Shown in pieces: positions 2,514 through 12,306 of a DNA stretch of 13,131 bases; within the stretch, counting starts at the first letter, position 1; each line of letters opens with the position of its first letter. The DNA is from a virus. Lineage: Duplodnaviria; Heunggongvirae; Uroviricota; Caudoviricetes. The DNA is taken from IMG/VR virus record IMGVR_UViG_2703719355_000018. One strand, written 5' to 3'. Made by a program: the position numbers and the translations under genes. Under the pieces are notes generated by a model. That model made no database searches and was not told where the DNA came from. It saw only the letters and a program-made list of their open reading frames with translations.

Positions 2514-2670
2514 GCCGGTCCTGCTGTCCGCCGAGCAGATGCAGGCCATACGCAACATTCAGGAACGTGAACGCCAGCGCTCCAATCTCGGCGTCGCTCC
2601 CACCGTTCACCAGATTGCCCGCGGCCTCATGGCTAAGGCTCTGGCCTCACTGGCAAGCGAGGGCGTGTAA
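2494..2670 (+). CDS. Small hypothetical protein (58 aa), possibly ribbon-helix-helix-like DNA-binding
   Basis: GGAG RBS 8 nt upstream of the ATG at 2494; overlaps the previous stop by 20 nt and its own stop overlaps the next start (TAATG). The 2401 start in the ORF track is rejected. Confidence 0.45.
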   Translation: MRKPNVKPVLLSAEQMQAIRNIQERERQRSNLGVAPTVHQIARGLMAKALASLASEGV

Positions 2671-3341
2671 TGGGCGCCATTCACCAGATATATGAGCAGG
2701 AAATGTTCTATAACTGGATAGGCGATGGTAAACGATGTGTAGCATTCCACGAAGCGGGCCATGCAGTAGCCGCATGGCTTATTCGCTTAGATATGCAGGT
2801 TATCGCCATTATGGATGAATCCGGCTACGTTGCTGGCGAACATGTACATGAAGCCCAGTGTTTGGGCATTGTTAAACACAGCATAATCCACAGCCACGAT
2901 CTCAGGCGTTTGCGGGAGAGTAAATCTGGTGTAGTTGGGCACGATGGCAAAGTTATCCCTTTCATACGCTACTACGCGGAAGGTATAAAGCGCGATGCAA
3001 CAAAGGCCGCTTTTGTAGCCCTCGCTGGACCAGTAAGCGAAGCCCTTTACGAAAATAACGAAATTTTCAATAAAAAGTATTCACTCCCTCACCGCTATGA
3101 CATGGCTAACGTAAATGACATGCTCGATTTAATATGTGCCACGGATAAGCAAATTAACAGGAAGTTAATGCTTTCTAAACTTGTTGAAAAGACCAAATTC
3201 CTCATGACTCAATACTGGCCGGAAGTAGGAAAAATAGCGCATTTGCTTGAGCGGGATAACATTGTTAATGGGCGCGATGTTAGCTCGCTAATCGGCCTCA
3301 ACGTCATTGACCGGGCAACGCCATTTTTGCTGGAGGAATAA
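2670..3341 (+). CDS. Predicted zinc metallopeptidase, standalone FtsH/M41-like HEAGH motif (223 aa)
   Basis: VAFHEAGHAVAAWL closely resembles the FtsH zinc-binding segment, with a downstream ALAGPVSEALY segment; no AAA ATPase domain; GAGGG RBS; start overlaps upstream stop. Confidence 0.7.
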   Translation: MGAIHQIYEQEMFYNWIGDGKRCVAFHEAGHAVAAWLIRLDMQVIAIMDESGYVAGEHVHEAQCLGIVKHSIIHSHDLRRLRESKSGVVGHDGKVIPFIRYYAEGIKRDATKAAFVALAGPVSEALYENNEIFNKKYSLPHRYDMANVNDMLDLICATDKQINRKLMLSKLVEKTKFLMTQYWPEVGKIAHLLERDNIVNGRDVSSLIGLNVIDRATPFLLEE

Positions 3342-3417: not shown

Positions 3418-4476
3418 ATGATGAATAATTTAATCAATCGCATTGCTTTAACCTTTCTAGCGTTAGTACTCACAGGCTGCACTGCGGGGAAAATCGATCC
3501 CGCAAAAGCGTTAACACAAATGCATATCGTCAAAAGTGATGACTATAAGAAGCGCCCCGGCTGGCCTGCGTTAGTTCGTCTGGGTACTGACGATTGTGAG
3601 ACATACAAAAGTGGCGGCGGTAGCCTCTTTAAGTGGGACGGGCTGACGTGCAACGACAAAAGCATTATCCTGGCGGTTAATAGCAAACCACAGACCATTC
3701 CAGTGTTCTACGCTGCTTACCATGAATACGGGAGCTATGGGGTCGGGGAACTATCCAATTTTGACAATAGCACCCGAACAGGTGAGGAAGCCTCGAAGAT
3801 TCTGGTTAACCTGACCACAGCATTGAACAATCCGGCAAAAGTTGACGCTATCTATGCTGACTATGAAAAGGATCGTTGGAGCATGGGACTTGGTACAGTC
3901 AACGAAAGCGATTTTAAAAAGAGCCTGGCTACTTTTGCTCAGGAACGGGATAAGCTCGCCTCTGAATACCATAGATTACGTGACGCAAACCAAAAGAGAT
4001 ACCTAGCTGAACGGGACGAACGAATCAAACGTGAGAAAGAAGAGGCCATGGCCTCTGAAAAAACGATTGATCTCGTGTTATGGCAGAATCCAACAGTTGA
4101 GCAACAGATGGTTGTTGACGCTCTGCACACTATTAAATTCACAATAAGAAACGATGGCGTGGCATACGCTAACGGTCGCCGATTTATGTCAATTGCCGGG
4201 CTGGAATATCTCAGGAATAGCCTAGCTCTGAGTATGGAGTCATGTTCAGACGCTGGAGCATATGTTGGTGATACGGCATTAAATCGCGCATGTATTCAGG
4301 GCTTGGCGAGGAACATTGTTGAGTGGGGGAAAACCGCCAACGACCGTTCTATTTCAGACAGAGCATGGAACGCAGCCGCAATGGATGGCAGCATTAACTA
4401 CAACCCAATCAAGTATGAAATCCTGTTTTCACATTGGGCAGGAATGGCCCGTGTCTACTCTGCTCGTGGATATTAA
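3418..4476 (+). CDS. Predicted lipoprotein of unknown function (352 aa)
   Basis: N-terminal signal peptide ending in lipobox LTGC (MMNNLINRIALTFLALVLTGC); AAGGA RBS; followed by an intrinsic terminator. Confidence 0.7.
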   Translation: MMNNLINRIALTFLALVLTGCTAGKIDPAKALTQMHIVKSDDYKKRPGWPALVRLGTDDCETYKSGGGSLFKWDGLTCNDKSIILAVNSKPQTIPVFYAAYHEYGSYGVGELSNFDNSTRTGEEASKILVNLTTALNNPAKVDAIYADYEKDRWSMGLGTVNESDFKKSLATFAQERDKLASEYHRLRDANQKRYLAERDERIKREKEEAMASEKTIDLVLWQNPTVEQQMVVDALHTIKFTIRNDGVAYANGRRFMSIAGLEYLRNSLALSMESCSDAGAYVGDTALNRACIQGLARNIVEWGKTANDRSISDRAWNAAAMDGSINYNPIKYEILFSHWAGMARVYSARGY

Positions 4477-4526
4477 ACATTGCGCTTCGAACTGATAAAT
4501 TTAAGCTTAATCAGTACATTACTGTT

Positions 4527-4552
4527 AGCCCGCATTTTAGCGGGCTTTCTTT
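4527..4552 (+). terminator. Rho-independent terminator after the lipoprotein gene
   Basis: Stem AGCCCGC/GCGGGCT with 6-nt loop, followed by TTCTTT. Confidence 0.6.
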
Positions 4553-4618
4553 AGTTGAGCTTTGTACAAGATGTAAATTTACATCCTGATTATCCAGTGC
4601 GCCGTAAAAGCTGGCAAT

Positions 4619-5731
4619 CTATTTAACTAAACGTAAATGTGACGGGCGTATCCCCGATTCCTGGGTACTCGATTTTCCACCATTGATAGCTTCCATAAAG
4701 AAGCTGTTACTGAAAGTAAGTGCACTCACTTCGTCCGCTGGTAACCTCAACTGCTCGAGAATATCTCCCCTTTTAACGCCTTTGCTGCGTAGGGCTGAAA
4801 ACACTTTATCCAGCACTAATGACTTTTCACGTTCAGCAATCCCTTGAGGCTCACTCGTACGATATCCACGGCGAGCAAGTTCTATCGATAGCTGTCGATA
4901 ATGCCATTCGGTAGATAAACCGACATCAAACGTACGGCGCACCAAAGCCGCCAATGATACCCGCCAGTTCTTTTTTAACGAGATGAGTAGATCAAGCGAT
5001 GGCATTCTTGGCACTAAAGCTAAAATACTACGCTCAGGCATCAAAAAGGCCGATGCGAATCGATCTGCATCCTGCTCAGCTTGGCGGCCGTTGTTAGTTG
5101 AATGTTTATGGAGAACCAAGTGCCCCAGTTCATGAGCTGCATCGAATCGACTACGCTCCGGCGTTTTCATTGTATTCAAAAGCACAAAAGGTTTTTCATC
5201 CATCCAGAACGAAAAGGCGTCTACTTCAATACAATTTTCCGCGAGAGAGAACACACGGACCCCATTAGCTTCAAGAAGATGGACCATGTTAGAGATGGAT
5301 AATTCACCTATCCCCCAACTTTCTCTAACCACGCGAGCAGCTCGCTCAGGCTCAGAATAACCATCGAAACTACAATCAGGTACATTAGGTTTAGGAAGCT
5401 TAAACTGCCCGTCAATCCAAGCTGATAGCTCTTGCGCGAGCTTTCCGGCTCCGAGTGCTGAGTCCCTTTTCTGTGCCGTCAACTTTGTCATTGCACGGAA
5501 ACTAACGGCTTCTGGCGACAGAGTAGGTACATCCCTGTCGAAGAAGAACTCAATCGGATAGCCCAGAACAGCAGAAATCCGTTCCATGGTATCGCTGGCT
5601 ATGGCATCAAAAATCCCTGCTTTCTCGTAATTCGAAATCGTCTTACTAGTCAATTCTGTAGCTTCAGCTAAAGCTCTTTGTGTCAGGCCTCTCCGTTCTC
5701 TGGCTATACGTAAACGCTCTGAATTAAACAT
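4619..5731 (-). CDS. Fused XRE-family HTH / ImmA-IrrE (COG2856) zinc metallopeptidase regulator (370 aa)
   Basis: N-terminal HTH (LRIARERRGLTQRALAEATELTSKTISNYE); HExxH as HELGHLVLH, followed by the family-typical FASAFLMPE segment. Confidence 0.85.
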   Translation of the reverse strand: MFNSERLRIARERRGLTQRALAEATELTSKTISNYEKAGIFDAIASDTMERISAVLGYPIEFFFDRDVPTLSPEAVSFRAMTKLTAQKRDSALGAGKLAQELSAWIDGQFKLPKPNVPDCSFDGYSEPERAARVVRESWGIGELSISNMVHLLEANGVRVFSLAENCIEVDAFSFWMDEKPFVLLNTMKTPERSRFDAAHELGHLVLHKHSTNNGRQAEQDADRFASAFLMPERSILALVPRMPSLDLLISLKKNWRVSLAALVRRTFDVGLSTEWHYRQLSIELARRGYRTSEPQGIAEREKSLVLDKVFSALRSKGVKRGDILEQLRLPADEVSALTFSNSFFMEAINGGKSSTQESGIRPSHLRLVK

Positions 5732-5740
5732 GGTGCATAT

Positions 5741-6460
5741 TTAGCCTGTTTTTAAAATGTCGAGATCGATATCCGGTGTAAACTGCGGTACATCACCGTT
5801 CTGAACAATAGGGTCAGGTTGATGAGGAGCAATAATTAAACGTGTGGAGAAGGCATTAACTACATTCTTGTTATTGTATGAAATCGGGCGTGAAAGCTCA
5901 GCTCGGATCCCCACGCGCTCATCCCCGTCAATTTCATAAAAATCGTAAAGTAAAAACCATAAGTCCAGTCCGATTTTATTCGGTAGCAGTGGTATAACAT
6001 CACCTTCCGGCATGTCTAAATCCAGCTTAAGCTGGCTATCATCCAGGATAAGCTCACCCTGACCCGGGGTGTTATTATGGATTAACCCCATCAGCTCACA
6101 AGTAAAATCACCTTTCTTCATGCGAGACTCAGGAAATCCATGAACCAAACCTGTCTGATCACACCCCCGGCAGAGGTAAAGGGCAACTTTATCACTTACA
6201 GTCAGTTCAACATTTCGCAGAGACAGACGTTTGTAGCCTTTCGGAGCCAGAATGTCGCGGGCTGCACTCACCCCCTCACCATAGAAATATTGCCCACGTG
6301 AGGTCTTGGGGTGATTCTGAGTCGTCGAATAACGACCAGACAAGCCACGCTCAAGAATACGCCTGAGATCACTTTGGCTCAGATTCAGGGACTGCAGGTA
6401 GGATTCAACATCGTCAGGATCTGCCAAAACAATGGTTTTTGCGAGATTATGAGAGTACAT
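5741..6460 (-). CDS. Hypothetical protein (239 aa), first gene of a two-gene operon with the HTH-ImmA regulator; candidate effector/toxin
   Basis: AAGAGG RBS 8 nt upstream of the ATG; stop lies 9 nt before the downstream start; no family recognised. Confidence 0.65.
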   Translation of the reverse strand: MYSHNLAKTIVLADPDDVESYLQSLNLSQSDLRRILERGLSGRYSTTQNHPKTSRGQYFYGEGVSAARDILAPKGYKRLSLRNVELTVSDKVALYLCRGCDQTGLVHGFPESRMKKGDFTCELMGLIHNNTPGQGELILDDSQLKLDLDMPEGDVIPLLPNKIGLDLWFLLYDFYEIDGDERVGIRAELSRPISYNNKNVVNAFSTRLIIAPHQPDPIVQNGDVPQFTPDIDLDILKTG

Positions 6461-6489
6461 CGGAAAAGCCTCTTATATATTTTCTATTT

Positions 6490-6518
6490 TTTATACCTCA
6501 TTTGAGGTTTAAAAACAA
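6490..6518 (-). promoter_or_regulatory. Sigma70-like promoter for the minus-strand operon with an embedded palindromic operator
   Basis: On the minus strand: -35 TTGTTT (6513-6518), 17-nt spacer, -10 TATAAA (6490-6495); 14-bp palindrome ACCTCA-TT-TGAGGT (6495-6508) fills the spacer. Confidence 0.5.
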
Positions 6519-6526
6519 GAAAATCA

Positions 6527-6542
6527 CTGTATAAAATCTCAG
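6527..6542. promoter_or_regulatory. LexA-like box CTGTATAAAATCTCAG (CTG-N10-CAG) in the divergent intergenic region
   Basis: Left half matches the LexA consensus CTGTATAT; right half keeps only CAG. Confidence 0.3.
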
Positions 6543-6666
6543 AGATAATCGACAGATTAGAGAGTATTATCCATATTGAGGCTATCCCGACGGGGAGAAA
6601 AGCGACTACGCCTTGCCGCCTGCCTCCCCCATTATCTCAAGGCGGTGACGTGTAAGGCGAACGTGC

Positions 6667-7485
6667 ATGAGTGGTTTTGTTTTTCCTTTCGAGTTTCAAC
6701 CAGTGCCAGAGGCATTGGCAATCCTGAACGACATGGATATTGCTCCCTTTGAAATAACCGAAAAACACCTAGAAAGCTGGTGGGCGGAGGGGAAAATTCA
6801 ACTGTGCTTTAACTGGGGTAGATTCTGGAAAGCTGGCTTAGCCGACGAACTGGCAAAAACAGAAGGCTACGCAGAATTAGGGGCGAAAGAAAAGATCACT
6901 GCGCTCAATGCTGTATCCGCTTCCCCCGAGGCTAACATCAGTCTTGTCGTGCCATCTTACAGCGATTTAAGTTTTATCTGGCGCGGGCATAGCGACGATC
7001 CACTCCCCTGTATCGAGGCCAAACCCTACGGGCTTGATCAACCTTTTGTTATCAAACGCGTTCCTCACACCTGCGAGGACTATTGCGATTACGGTACGCA
7101 GCATTGGGAAAAACTTTACCATTCGCTGCACATTTCGAGTATGGTGCTGCCGCGTGCTGAAGCTGAAAAAATTTATTATCTCTGCAACCCTACAGCTATT
7201 CCAGGCATGGACGAAAAGACGGCATCTGCAGTATCTGCGAAAACGGTTAACTATCTGGCCACTGCTTTAAAAGCTTTTATTCACATCCATTACGGGGCTG
7301 ATGTGGCGGACAACCTGCGCAAACATCTTGAGGATCCCACCAGTGATATACGGAAAGACTTTGCGAATAAAGGGATCAAAGCGCCAGGTGGAAAAGCGCT
7401 GGCCAGCCATCTGAAAAATATTCTGATTGAAGTTTTACCCGCGCTCGACAACGTCGATGTGGAGAGTGACGCTGGTAATACATAA
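6667..7485 (+). CDS. Hypothetical protein (272 aa), Cys/His-rich central segment
   Basis: Long ORF divergent from the minus-strand operon; AAGG RBS-like sequence upstream; HTCEDYCDYGTQHW segment; no family recognised. Confidence 0.6.
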   Translation: MSGFVFPFEFQPVPEALAILNDMDIAPFEITEKHLESWWAEGKIQLCFNWGRFWKAGLADELAKTEGYAELGAKEKITALNAVSASPEANISLVVPSYSDLSFIWRGHSDDPLPCIEAKPYGLDQPFVIKRVPHTCEDYCDYGTQHWEKLYHSLHISSMVLPRAEAEKIYYLCNPTAIPGMDEKTASAVSAKTVNYLATALKAFIHIHYGADVADNLRKHLEDPTSDIRKDFANKGIKAPGGKALASHLKNILIEVLPALDNVDVESDAGNT

Positions 7486-9261: not shown

Positions 9262-11672
9262 GTGGATTCGATCACCTGATGGAGCAGGGGCAGAAACGCA
9301 CCCCTGCTCGTTTTACTGCAAATAGCTTTTCTGACCTGTGCAACGCTATTCTATCGCATCGTGTGCAAATTTCCATCACACAGGAAATGACGGATGAAGA
9401 ACGGCGCAAAGAAAAGCAGAAACTGTACTGGTTCTCGGCAACTACCCAGCAGGACGGGCAGCGACGTAAACCCGAAAACATGGCACCGTGTGCTTTCGGT
9501 ATGCTGGACATTGACGGCAGCACTCCCGGTGCAATCACAGCACTTGTACAGGTGTTCCGGCGATACTCAATGCTGGTGTACCAGACGGCCAGCTATACGG
9601 CGGATGAACCTCGTCTGCGTATTGTGTGCGAGCTTTCCCGAGCGGTTGAATCTGACTACCGCCGAGCGACAGGCGAATCCATAGAAACTTTGTTGATGCA
9701 GGAGGCTGGATTCTCATTCGCCAGCCTGGCGGATAAGAAAGCACGCTGGGAGAACGGCAGCGATTATGTTGTCTTTGACCGCAATGTATACGGCGCTCAA
9801 AGCTATTGCTACTGTCCACACACTGGAGCGAAAGCCCAGAATTACGCGGGCGCGGTAATCGACGTAGGGGCGTTACCGGAACCCGCCCAGCCACCAGCGA
9901 AGGCGGCCAAAAGCAAGGCAAAGAAACAGCGCCAGCGTGACGCCGCGGCGGTAATAGATGCTGATTTTGACGATCTGAGCGCCGGACCGGATAACTTCCT
10001 TATCGCCGACCTGCGCAGCGCACTCTGGTTTCCCTCCATGCTGCAAAAGGCATGGGACAATGGGGCGTGGATTGAGCAGGGCTACCGCCTTGCATCTCTC
10101 AAAGGCACCGATTTTGAGGACGACGCGCGGCAACTGTGGGTCGAGTGGTCATTGACCGCAGCGGATGGCTGGCCTGATGAAGAACTTGATGAAGTCGCGG
10201 CACAACGCTGGAATGGTCTCGCCCCTGACAAAACCAGCTATAAAGCTATTTTTACTGATGCTCAGGCGCAGGGGTGGAATAATCCGGGCAAATGGCGAGC
10301 AAAGGCCGCGTACATTGAGAAAATGGCCCCCAGCACACGCGGTGAACTGCTGGCGCAATATTACGGCAACGTATGCCTGAAAGCTGATGGCAACATGGTT
10401 TATCACTATACCGGGCAGGGGTGGGAGCACATCGCCGATGCCGAGTTGCGCCGCCAGCTTTCGCAGATTTTCAAAGATAACGGGGTCCCCTTTACACCGT
10501 ACGAGGTTAAAAGCGCGATTGAGGCTATGGGAATGCTTCTGCCTTTAATAGGAGAAACTCCTCGTAACCTGATTGGCTTTGCCAACGGCGTTTATGATCT
10601 CGAGGCGCAGCGATTCCGCCCCCACTGCCCAGACGATTGGCTGACCAGCCATAACGGCGTTGAATACACGCAGCCGGTTAAAGGCGAAACCCTGAAAAAC
10701 AATGCCCCAAACTTCTGGCGCTGGCTGCATCATTCCGCAGGGGGCGACTTCGACAAAATGGAGAGAATCAAAGCCGCTCTGTATATGGTGCTGGCAAACC
10801 GCTACGACTGGCAACTGTTCATCGAGGTTACCGGTGCTGGTGGCAGTGGTAAAAGCGTGTTCACGGGTATTGCACGTATGCTGACGGGCGAACTACACGC
10901 CACCAGCGGCACAATGGAGGACATGGACACCGCGCGCGAACGCGCATCTTTTGTCGGAAAAAGCCTGATCACCCTACCCGACCAAGCAACATATACGGGT
11001 TCCGGGCCGGGTATCAAGGCTATAACGGGCGGCGACGTGGTAAGGATCGACCCAAAGCACGAAAAGCCATTCCATACGGTTATTCGCGCCGTTGTCATCG
11101 CAACAAACAACGAACCTATGCGTTTCACCGAACGACAAGGCGGGATATCGCGGCGCCGGGTTATTTTCCCGTTTAACCATGAAGTGCCGGAGGCGGAACG
11201 TGATCCCCATCTGCTCGATAAAATTAAAGCCGAACTGCCGGTAATCGTCCGTGGTCTGCTGATTGACTTCGAACAGCCAGGCAAAGCCAAATCGCTACTT
11301 ATCGCGCAGCGTGATTCAGCGGAAGCGCTGCAGGTGAAGAACGATAACGACCCGATGTATGGCTTTTGCTCTTACCTGCTAGGTTTGCCGAATCCCGAGG
11401 GCATGTACATGGGCGATGGGCGCATGGCGCGAGAGCCACGCATCTACCTCTATCATGCTTATCTGGCCTATCTGGAAGCCTACGGTTATCAGAGAACCCC
11501 CACCCTACCGAAGTTCAGCGGAGATTTACGGGACACGCTCAAAGCCTTTGGTATTACTCTGGACAGTAAAAAGAGTAAAAAGGGCAAAAGATATAACGTC
11601 AATTTGTCTGACAGGGCACAAGAATGGCTGGGAGAAGACGAACTCTCAGCTGTGCCCGACACATTGCAGTAA
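9258..11672 (+). CDS. DNA primase-helicase, P4 alpha-like phage/plasmid type (804 aa)
   Basis: Walker A GAGGSGKS followed by a P-loop NTPase region (VVIATNNEP) in the C-terminal half; size and position after alpA as in P4-like elements; AGGAGG RBS. Confidence 0.88.
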   Translation: MSGFDHLMEQGQKRTPARFTANSFSDLCNAILSHRVQISITQEMTDEERRKEKQKLYWFSATTQQDGQRRKPENMAPCAFGMLDIDGSTPGAITALVQVFRRYSMLVYQTASYTADEPRLRIVCELSRAVESDYRRATGESIETLLMQEAGFSFASLADKKARWENGSDYVVFDRNVYGAQSYCYCPHTGAKAQNYAGAVIDVGALPEPAQPPAKAAKSKAKKQRQRDAAAVIDADFDDLSAGPDNFLIADLRSALWFPSMLQKAWDNGAWIEQGYRLASLKGTDFEDDARQLWVEWSLTAADGWPDEELDEVAAQRWNGLAPDKTSYKAIFTDAQAQGWNNPGKWRAKAAYIEKMAPSTRGELLAQYYGNVCLKADGNMVYHYTGQGWEHIADAELRRQLSQIFKDNGVPFTPYEVKSAIEAMGMLLPLIGETPRNLIGFANGVYDLEAQRFRPHCPDDWLTSHNGVEYTQPVKGETLKNNAPNFWRWLHHSAGGDFDKMERIKAALYMVLANRYDWQLFIEVTGAGGSGKSVFTGIARMLTGELHATSGTMEDMDTARERASFVGKSLITLPDQATYTGSGPGIKAITGGDVVRIDPKHEKPFHTVIRAVVIATNNEPMRFTERQGGISRRRVIFPFNHEVPEAERDPHLLDKIKAELPVIVRGLLIDFEQPGKAKSLLIAQRDSAEALQVKNDNDPMYGFCSYLLGLPNPEGMYMGDGRMAREPRIYLYHAYLAYLEAYGYQRTPTLPKFSGDLRDTLKAFGITLDSKKSKKGKRYNVNLSDRAQEWLGEDELSAVPDTLQ

Positions 11673-11985: not shown

Positions 11986-12009
11986 TCTTGTACCCAAGAT
12001 TGTACCCAA
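11986..12009. repeat. Tandem direct repeat, two units ending in TTGTACCCAA (11988-11997 and 12000-12009)
   Basis: Read directly in the AT-rich junction between the element and dinD; function unknown (att remnant or binding site). Confidence 0.4.
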
Positions 12010-12245: not shown

Positions 12246-12261
12246 CTGTATATAAATACAG
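12246..12261. promoter_or_regulatory. LexA (SOS) box CTGTATATAAATACAG upstream of dinD
   Basis: Exact CTGT-N8-ACAG consensus, 45 nt upstream of the dinD start; dinD is a known LexA-regulated gene. Confidence 0.85.
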
Positions 12262-12306
12262 TTACAGATTTACTTTCTTTGCAATCGATATCACATGGAG
12301 TGGGCA

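Follow-up and report, generated by a model that had tools for sequence, protein, structure and literature searches.

The rmrTA operon of a 12-kb integrative island corresponds by sequence to the founding RosmerTA system of Escherichia coli and carries a conserved operator-like dyad

We analysed a 13,131-nt stretch of viral DNA (IMG/VR record IMGVR_UViG_2703719355_000018, Caudoviricetes), here referred to as the window, for a two-gene operon on its minus strand; all coordinates given are positions of the whole window. The first gene, rmrT (5741..6460, minus strand, from the list of open reading frames (ORFs)), encodes a 239-aa toxin, and the second, rmrA (4619..5731, minus), encodes a 370-aa antitoxin with an XRE helix-turn-helix (HTH) domain, a linker, an M78 Zn-peptidase domain and a helical C-terminal region. 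Together they match RosmerTA, a published anti-phage system. Both ORFs were confirmed at the positions assigned to them in an earlier reading of the same DNA (the original prediction), in which the 239-aa ORF lay 9 nt upstream of the 370-aa ORF. The 9 nt that separate the stop codon of rmrT from the start of rmrA, ATATGCACC (5732..5740, minus; read from the sequence), were inspected and showed no obvious Shine-Dalgarno sequence; thus, translational coupling of rmrA to rmrT is likely. A Shine-Dalgarno sequence, AAGAGG, was read 8 nt 5′ of the rmrT ATG (6469..6474, minus).

Scanning against PADLOC-DB assigned the 239-aa protein to RmrT (PDLC03935, E 1.1e-52, residues 9-237 of 239) and the 370-aa protein to RmrA (PDLC03949, E 6.3e-151, full length). 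Direct comparison with the proteins of E. coli OLC-716 showed 239/239 identity for RmrT and 368/370 (99.5%) for RmrA, the two differences of the latter, F64L and V335A, both being conservative. RosmerTA of OLC-716 was cloned under its native promoter as construct SG158, which protects E. coli against phages and is marked 'v' or 'Verified' in Tables S2 and S11 (Millman et al. 2022, bioRxiv 10.1101/2022.05.11.491447; Cell Host & Microbe 2022). Over its initial 399 nt, the published insert (2192 bp) follows the minus strand of the window from position 6667, with 1 mismatch, and the SG158 clone therefore corresponds to window 4476..6667 (minus), a 2192-bp fragment that holds both genes and both intergenic regions. 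The two systems agree in gene order, in the 9-nt spacer and in the promoter region; they differ by a few silent or intergenic changes and by the host strain. RosmerTA was described as a Zn-peptidase antitoxin with a toxin of unknown function, and the delta-rmrA construct could not be transformed, for which toxicity was given as a possible reason (Millman et al. 2022, 10.1101/2022.05.11.491447). The same composition was found here, with an HEXXH-bearing M78 Zn-peptidase domain in RmrA and an adjacent, co-oriented gene recognised as RmrT.

Judged by these sequence comparisons, the window operon is the type example, i.e. the founding system, of RosmerTA, which has already been named, modelled and experimentally validated. 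The original prediction had taken it for an undescribed toxin or defence module, in which the HTH-ImmA/IrrE protein would be an antitoxin-like partner. The module itself stands, the operon being near-identical to a verified RosmerTA, and so does the antitoxin, as the protein is RmrA; the claim of novelty falls, since PADLOC models both genes and the system has been tested. Thus, the operon should be dropped as a discovery, and we regard this negative result as useful. What is new in this analysis is the conserved operator-like dyad, the conservation of the cassette across species, and an RmrT predicted to be soluble with a conserved tail.

Within RmrA, the HTH domain covers residues 7-63 (5543..5713, minus; Pfam HTH_3, E 4e-9) and the ImmA/IrrE-type domain residues 154-266 (4934..5272, minus; Pfam Peptidase_M78, PF06114, E 9.5e-21), in agreement with the two domains first proposed for this protein. 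Both motifs cited for the peptidase were present: HELGHLVLH (residues 200-208, 5108..5134, minus), at which the HEXXH is H200-E201-x-x-H204, and FASAFLMPE (residues 225-233, 5033..5059, minus). In 27 homologues, no variation was seen at H200, E201, H204, H208 and E219. The linker between the two domains carries a motif, S-F-R-A (residues 77-80, 5492..5503, minus), of which S77, R79 and A80 are likewise invariant, and F78 nearly so, in 27 homologues down to 50% identity; we speculate that this motif might serve for self-cleavage or as a pseudo-substrate.

RmrA gave a confident AlphaFold2 model (predicted local distance difference test (pLDDT) 86, predicted template modelling score (pTM) 0.85), which matched, in structure comparison, CapP/IrrE peptidases together with HTH domains of the SinR/CapH/ImmR type. 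When compared with the NCBIfam model 'spr1629 family repressor/antitoxin', RmrA scored E 4.5e-38, which is below the cut-off of that model. PDB entry 9vzy, a 393-aa 'HTH cro/C1-type domain-containing protein', showed an HTH and peptidase layout like that of RmrA, at a weak E of 0.002, and may be the structure of an RmrA-like antitoxin; a literature search turned up no paper describing this entry.

Family searches with RmrT gave no match in Pfam, NCBIfam or PHROGs. The protein had been put forward as a partner without any recognised signature, to be followed up by profile and structure searches; this holds for the three libraries above, but not for PADLOC, whose RmrT profile identified it, while Foldseek of the RmrT model against PDB gave no match below E 0.1. 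The close-family profile of RmrT had no sequence match in PDB. In the AlphaFold2 model (pLDDT 78, pTM 0.75, with pLDDT above 90 over most of residues 10-130 and 160-210), RmrT is predicted to be a soluble alpha/beta protein with the element order helix, three strands, helix, strands, and with two disordered stretches, an insertion at residues 134-158 and a C-terminal tail at residues 214-239. Neither a transmembrane nor a hydrophobic segment was detected, the maximum Kyte-Doolittle mean over 19 residues being 1.03. For this reason a membrane toxin, like the RmrT of the Gordonia phage Kita, was ruled out as a candidate.

The disordered tail (5744..5821, minus; from the model and the alignment) shows conservation throughout the RmrT superfamily: hydrophobic residues alternate with acidic ones, and two to three basic residues and a small one come next (e.g. 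…EIKRRA). A dibasic pair was found in the last six residues of 112 of the 149 superfamily representatives. This tail, which resembles the MuA-type ClpX recognition signal, could be a handle for a protease or an unfoldase, and it may relate to the essentiality of ClpX/ClpP in Rosmer-carrying strains. The insertion at residues 134-158 (5987..6061, minus; from the model) is a feature of the Enterobacterales RmrT proteins and measures some 12-25 residues, according to the relative chosen for comparison; the relatives in Vibrio, Shewanella and Photobacterium do not have it, nor do most superfamily members, the typical length in the superfamily being 210-225 aa.

Upstream of rmrT, an inverted-repeat search identified a 46-bp imperfect dyad (6479..6524, minus) with 22-nt arms, complementary at 19/22 positions, and with outer arms ATTTTCT and AGAAAAT. 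This block would include the promoter of the operon, with a putative -35 element, TTGTTT (6513..6518, minus), separated by a 17-nt spacer from a putative -10 element, TATAAA (6490..6495, minus). An inner inverted repeat of 6+2+6, ACCTCA-aa-TGAGGT (6495..6508, minus), sits within that spacer; it is the 14-bp palindrome of the original prediction, which is real and forms the core of the larger dyad. The dyad score was reached by 0 of 2000 dinucleotide-preserving shuffles of the 206-nt intergenic region. A consensus promoter scan called no minus-strand promoter upstream of rmrT, since the -35 element matches the consensus at 3/6 positions only; the promoter assignment therefore rests on conservation.

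To follow this conservation, the 100 nt upstream of rmrT were aligned for 16 sequences, namely the window and 15 other species. The blocks TTTCTTGTTTT, CCTC…GAGGT and A.AGGAAA were invariant or nearly so within otherwise unalignable sequence, the operator block being kept in Enterobacterales, Vibrio, Shewanella, Photobacterium and Aeromonas while its flanks diverge. In Shewanella and Vibrio the -10 hexamer is TACAAT or TAGAAT. Where the dyad changes, it changes symmetrically: its centre is CCTCAATTGAGG in some genera and CCTCGATCGAGG in Vibrio and Shewanella, and its outer arms shorten jointly (ATTTTCT/AGAAAAT versus ATTTCT/AGGAAAT). The composite motif was found exactly once per locus, always directly upstream of rmrT. 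We consider this to be good comparative evidence that 6479..6524 is a candidate dyad-symmetric operator overlapping the promoter, as would be expected for a dimeric XRE repressor, and RmrA is probably the protein that binds it. The operator-like element that had been proposed over the operon promoter is thereby borne out, both by the alignment and by the shuffles.

At 99.7% identity or more, the operon was detected in 10 of 5,426 complete E. coli genomes, with one more at 77%, all chromosomal. In one E. coli strain, 2011C-4251, its genes are labelled by NCBI as "hypothetical protein" and "helix-turn-helix domain-containing protein". When one genome per species was scanned, RmrT relatives were identified in 16 further species belonging to Enterobacterales, Photobacterium, Vibrio, Shewanella and Aeromonas. 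An RmrA homologue follows rmrT by 6-24 nt on the same strand at 15 of these 16 loci, the sixteenth being a truncated remnant, and RmrA is the better conserved of the two (49-87% identity across the loci, versus 26-88% for RmrT). No other island gene is conserved beside rmrTA elsewhere, where the neighbours are unrelated and some have integrases nearby; thus, rmrT and rmrA form a self-contained travelling cassette. RmrA is part of a far larger family, in which no fewer than 5,996 clusters (90% identity) reach E <= 1e-10. For RmrT, a word-seeded search found 43 clusters of relatives, and a full profile search extended the superfamily to 1,932 clusters at 50% identity, 1,139 of them with E <= 1e-10. 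As all 45 sampled superfamily members match PADLOC RmrT models, this superfamily is the family that PADLOC already models.

The explanation that we favour, and hold to be reasonably probable, is that this original E. coli RosmerTA works at two levels, at which RmrA autorepresses the operon and also neutralises RmrT with the help of ClpX(P), until infection frees RmrT and abortive infection follows. An RmrA dimer would bind the dyad over the -35 and -10 elements of the rmrTA promoter and repress the operon. RmrA would moreover neutralise RmrT post-translationally, aided by host ClpX(P) and possibly through the conserved C-terminal tail of RmrT. Infection would then break this restraint, free RmrT would build up, and the cell would be arrested before the phage cycle is completed. 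In favour of such neutralisation, the toxins of two relatives, phage Kita RmrTA (Ernits et al. 2023, PMC10440598) and RipAB of Streptococcus pneumoniae (PMC12795458), are counteracted by antitoxin that is provided independently of the native toxin promoter. The help of ClpX(P) is proposed since ClpX or ClpP is essential where other Rosmer systems are present, as in E. coli E101, in three Pectobacteriaceae and in S. pneumoniae with RipAB (PMC12795458). The antitoxin gene rmrA is itself essential in Pectobacteriaceae carrying the system.

For the RmrT of the window, we infer all of these steps, and several points weigh against them. Autorepression by RmrA is deduced from conservation and symmetry only. 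The dependence on ClpX(P) comes from other RmrT families and not from this one, and the C-terminus of the window RmrT (…DILKTG) is only weakly basic. The main rival takes the opposite view of neutralisation: RmrA would only repress, as part of a purely transcriptional, protease-gated switch in the style of ImmR/ImmA or CapH/CapP, in which a signal (phage or damage) would cause the peptidase to cut the RmrA HTH in cis or in trans and RmrT would be overproduced, without any neutralisation at the protein level. Such a switch would suit the strongly conserved operator overlapping the promoter, the fusion of HTH and peptidase domains and the invariant S77-x-R79-A80 of the linker; moreover, cleavage of the HTH has been suggested for Rosmer-like systems (Ernits et al., PMC10440598), and the RipAB study conceded that repression might underlie the rescue (PMC12795458). 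We nevertheless regard it as unlikely, given that in Kita and RipAB toxin made from heterologous inducible promoters is held in check by antitoxin provided in trans, so that repression of the native promoter cannot account for neutralisation in these relatives, and given that the essentiality of ClpX/ClpP in Rosmer carriers would be left unexplained. The operon might also be mainly an addiction or stabilisation module that holds the 12-kb island in the chromosome, with defence as a side effect observed on plasmids. Its location on an integrative island flanked by 19-bp direct repeats, the essentiality of rmrA wherever the system is present and the movement of the cassette among unrelated contexts, some near integrases, all speak for such a role. 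On the other hand, defence, to which the system owes its name, was seen with a native-promoter construct, the distant RosmerTA of Kita also defends (PMC10440598), and addiction and defence are compatible roles; addiction as the main role therefore seems very unlikely to us.

As for the activity of the toxin, RmrT might be a nuclease with a PD-(D/E)XK-like restriction-endonuclease fold that degrades DNA on its release. The restriction enzyme BfiI was the best PDB sequence match of the superfamily profile, at a non-significant E of 0.15, and the predicted order of helix, three strands, helix and strands would be in line with it. However, every score remained below significance and Foldseek gave none, the 45 diverse superfamily members showed nothing meaningful in Pfam and 0/45 matched a nuclease family, and the residues invariant among them are G56, P110, E188 and R207, a conserved D…(D/E)xK triad being absent. 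The nuclease is thus a weak lead, and as an explanation we find it rather doubtful. We would give as little credit to a broader scheme, in which the RmrT tail would be a handle for continuous disposal by the RmrA peptidase and/or ClpX(P), RmrT would be a new, distant restriction-endonuclease-like enzyme, and phages would be sensed through interference with the disposal. Finally, RmrT could kill through membrane depolarisation, as does the RmrT of phage Kita. RmrT-D5 of Kita forms pores and depolarises E. coli (PMC10440598), and later papers extend this to 'RmrT' in general; but RmrT-D5 comes from another, unrelated family of toxins, with a C-terminal region predicted to localise to the membrane (PMC10440598), whereas the window RmrT has no hydrophobic segment and is predicted to fold as a soluble alpha/beta domain, which makes depolarisation highly improbable.

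For a system that is already validated, mechanistic starting points are offered by the candidate dyad operator, by the predicted soluble fold of the toxin with its four invariant residues, and by the conserved C-terminal tail, which may be connected with the dependence on ClpX/ClpP reported for Rosmer systems.

Regarding the genomic context, the window is almost exactly one island of ~12.1 kb. In E. coli 2011C-4251, the operon is found in an island between yicC and dinD. There, one copy of a 19-bp direct repeat, TTGTACCCAAGACTGTACC, precedes int by 61 nt and another follows the primase gene (4423-4441 and 16505-16523 of the locus L001). The repeat, of the form TTGTACCCAAGA(C/T)TGTACC, brackets the island, and its second copy is at 11988..12006 in the window, with one mismatch. 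These repeats are likely the att sites of the island. A search for transfer RNA genes found none within the window.

Searches against PHROGs identified an integrase (E 4e-66), an excisionase or regulator of the AlpA/ORF88-like type (E 1e-8) and a primase (E 2e-101) in the island. The primase is 43.5% identical to P4 alpha over 59% of the protein, in its C-terminal part, and tblastx against the complete P4 genome matched the primase at 48% over 349 aa and the icd/cI region at 44%. The same comparison of the whole window gave no match for P4 coordinates 9583-11460, nor for epsilon, sid, delta, psu and gop-beta-cII, and no psu, delta, sid or epsilon families were detected by a PHROGs scan of the island ORFs. 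The island thus shares with the phage satellite P4 a P4-type integrase, an AlpA/ORF88-like regulator, the icd/cI region and an alpha-type primase, and its cargo adjoins int, in a position equivalent to gop-beta-cII of P4. Cargo beside int is the known P4 defence hotspot (Rousset et al. 2022, PMC9122126). It differs from P4 in its site between yicC and dinD and in that psu, delta, sid and epsilon were not detected; by its gene content, it does not appear to be a P4-like satellite that exploits a helper. The view of the operon as cargo of a P4-like element holds, accordingly, as far as the integrative island and its P4-type genes are concerned, but does not extend to psu, delta, sid and epsilon.

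Other ORFs within the island were also examined. A 223-aa ORF (2670..3341, plus strand) has an FtsH-like zinc motif, FHEAGHAV, with sub-threshold matches only to Peptidase_M41 and M50B, and a 352-aa ORF downstream of it (3418..4476, plus) starts with an N-terminus that resembles a lipoprotein signal (…LVLTGC). Neither had a match in PADLOC, PHROGs or NCBIfam, and they may form a second uncharacterised cargo pair of the island. A GC-rich hairpin, AGCCCGC…GCGGGCT, with a T-run on the plus strand only, was found at 4527..4546 between the convergent 352-aa gene and rmrA, and it may be a terminator shared by these two genes. At the other side of the operon, a 272-aa ORF (6667..7485, plus) is divergent from rmrTA and shares the intergenic region with it; no match was found for it in any of four libraries. 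It was rejected as a third component of the system, as the active clone that was published does not contain it and as it is unconserved beside rmrTA elsewhere. Just upstream of the dinD ORF (12295..), the sequence CTGTATATAAATACAG, at about 12248..12263, resembles what we take to be the classical LexA (SOS) box of dinD. In 2011C-4251 dinD is annotated as a pseudogene with an internal stop, yet it is open to the window end here.

Among the known systems, RipAB (Spr1630/Spr1629) of S. pneumoniae, a Rosmer-family toxin-antitoxin system, has in common with the window operon an antitoxin with an XRE HTH and an ImmA-like peptidase, a toxin gene in first position and an essential antitoxin (PMC12795458). 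It differs in its toxin, RipA, which is of another family and acts on the sliding clamp DnaN, and in that ClpX dependence has been shown for RipAB (PMC12795458). RmrT-D5/RmrA-D25 of the Gordonia phage Kita likewise pairs a toxin with an ImmA-type protease antitoxin and, in E. coli, confers a defence against phages that is narrow (Ernits et al. 2023, PMC10440598); its toxin is membrane-depolarising (PMC10440598), whereas the window RmrT is unrelated and predicted to be soluble. The peptidase domain of RmrA is homologous to those of CapH/CapP, ImmR/ImmA of ICEBs1 and IrrE/DdrO of Deinococcus. These, however, are made of two proteins, in which the protease cleaves the repressor and other genes are derepressed. 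RmrA is no such two-protein switch, since HTH and peptidase are fused in one 370-aa chain, which is the antitoxin of the adjacent toxin. RmrA is, in effect, a single-chain CapH/CapP or ImmR/ImmA and may have a related mode of working.

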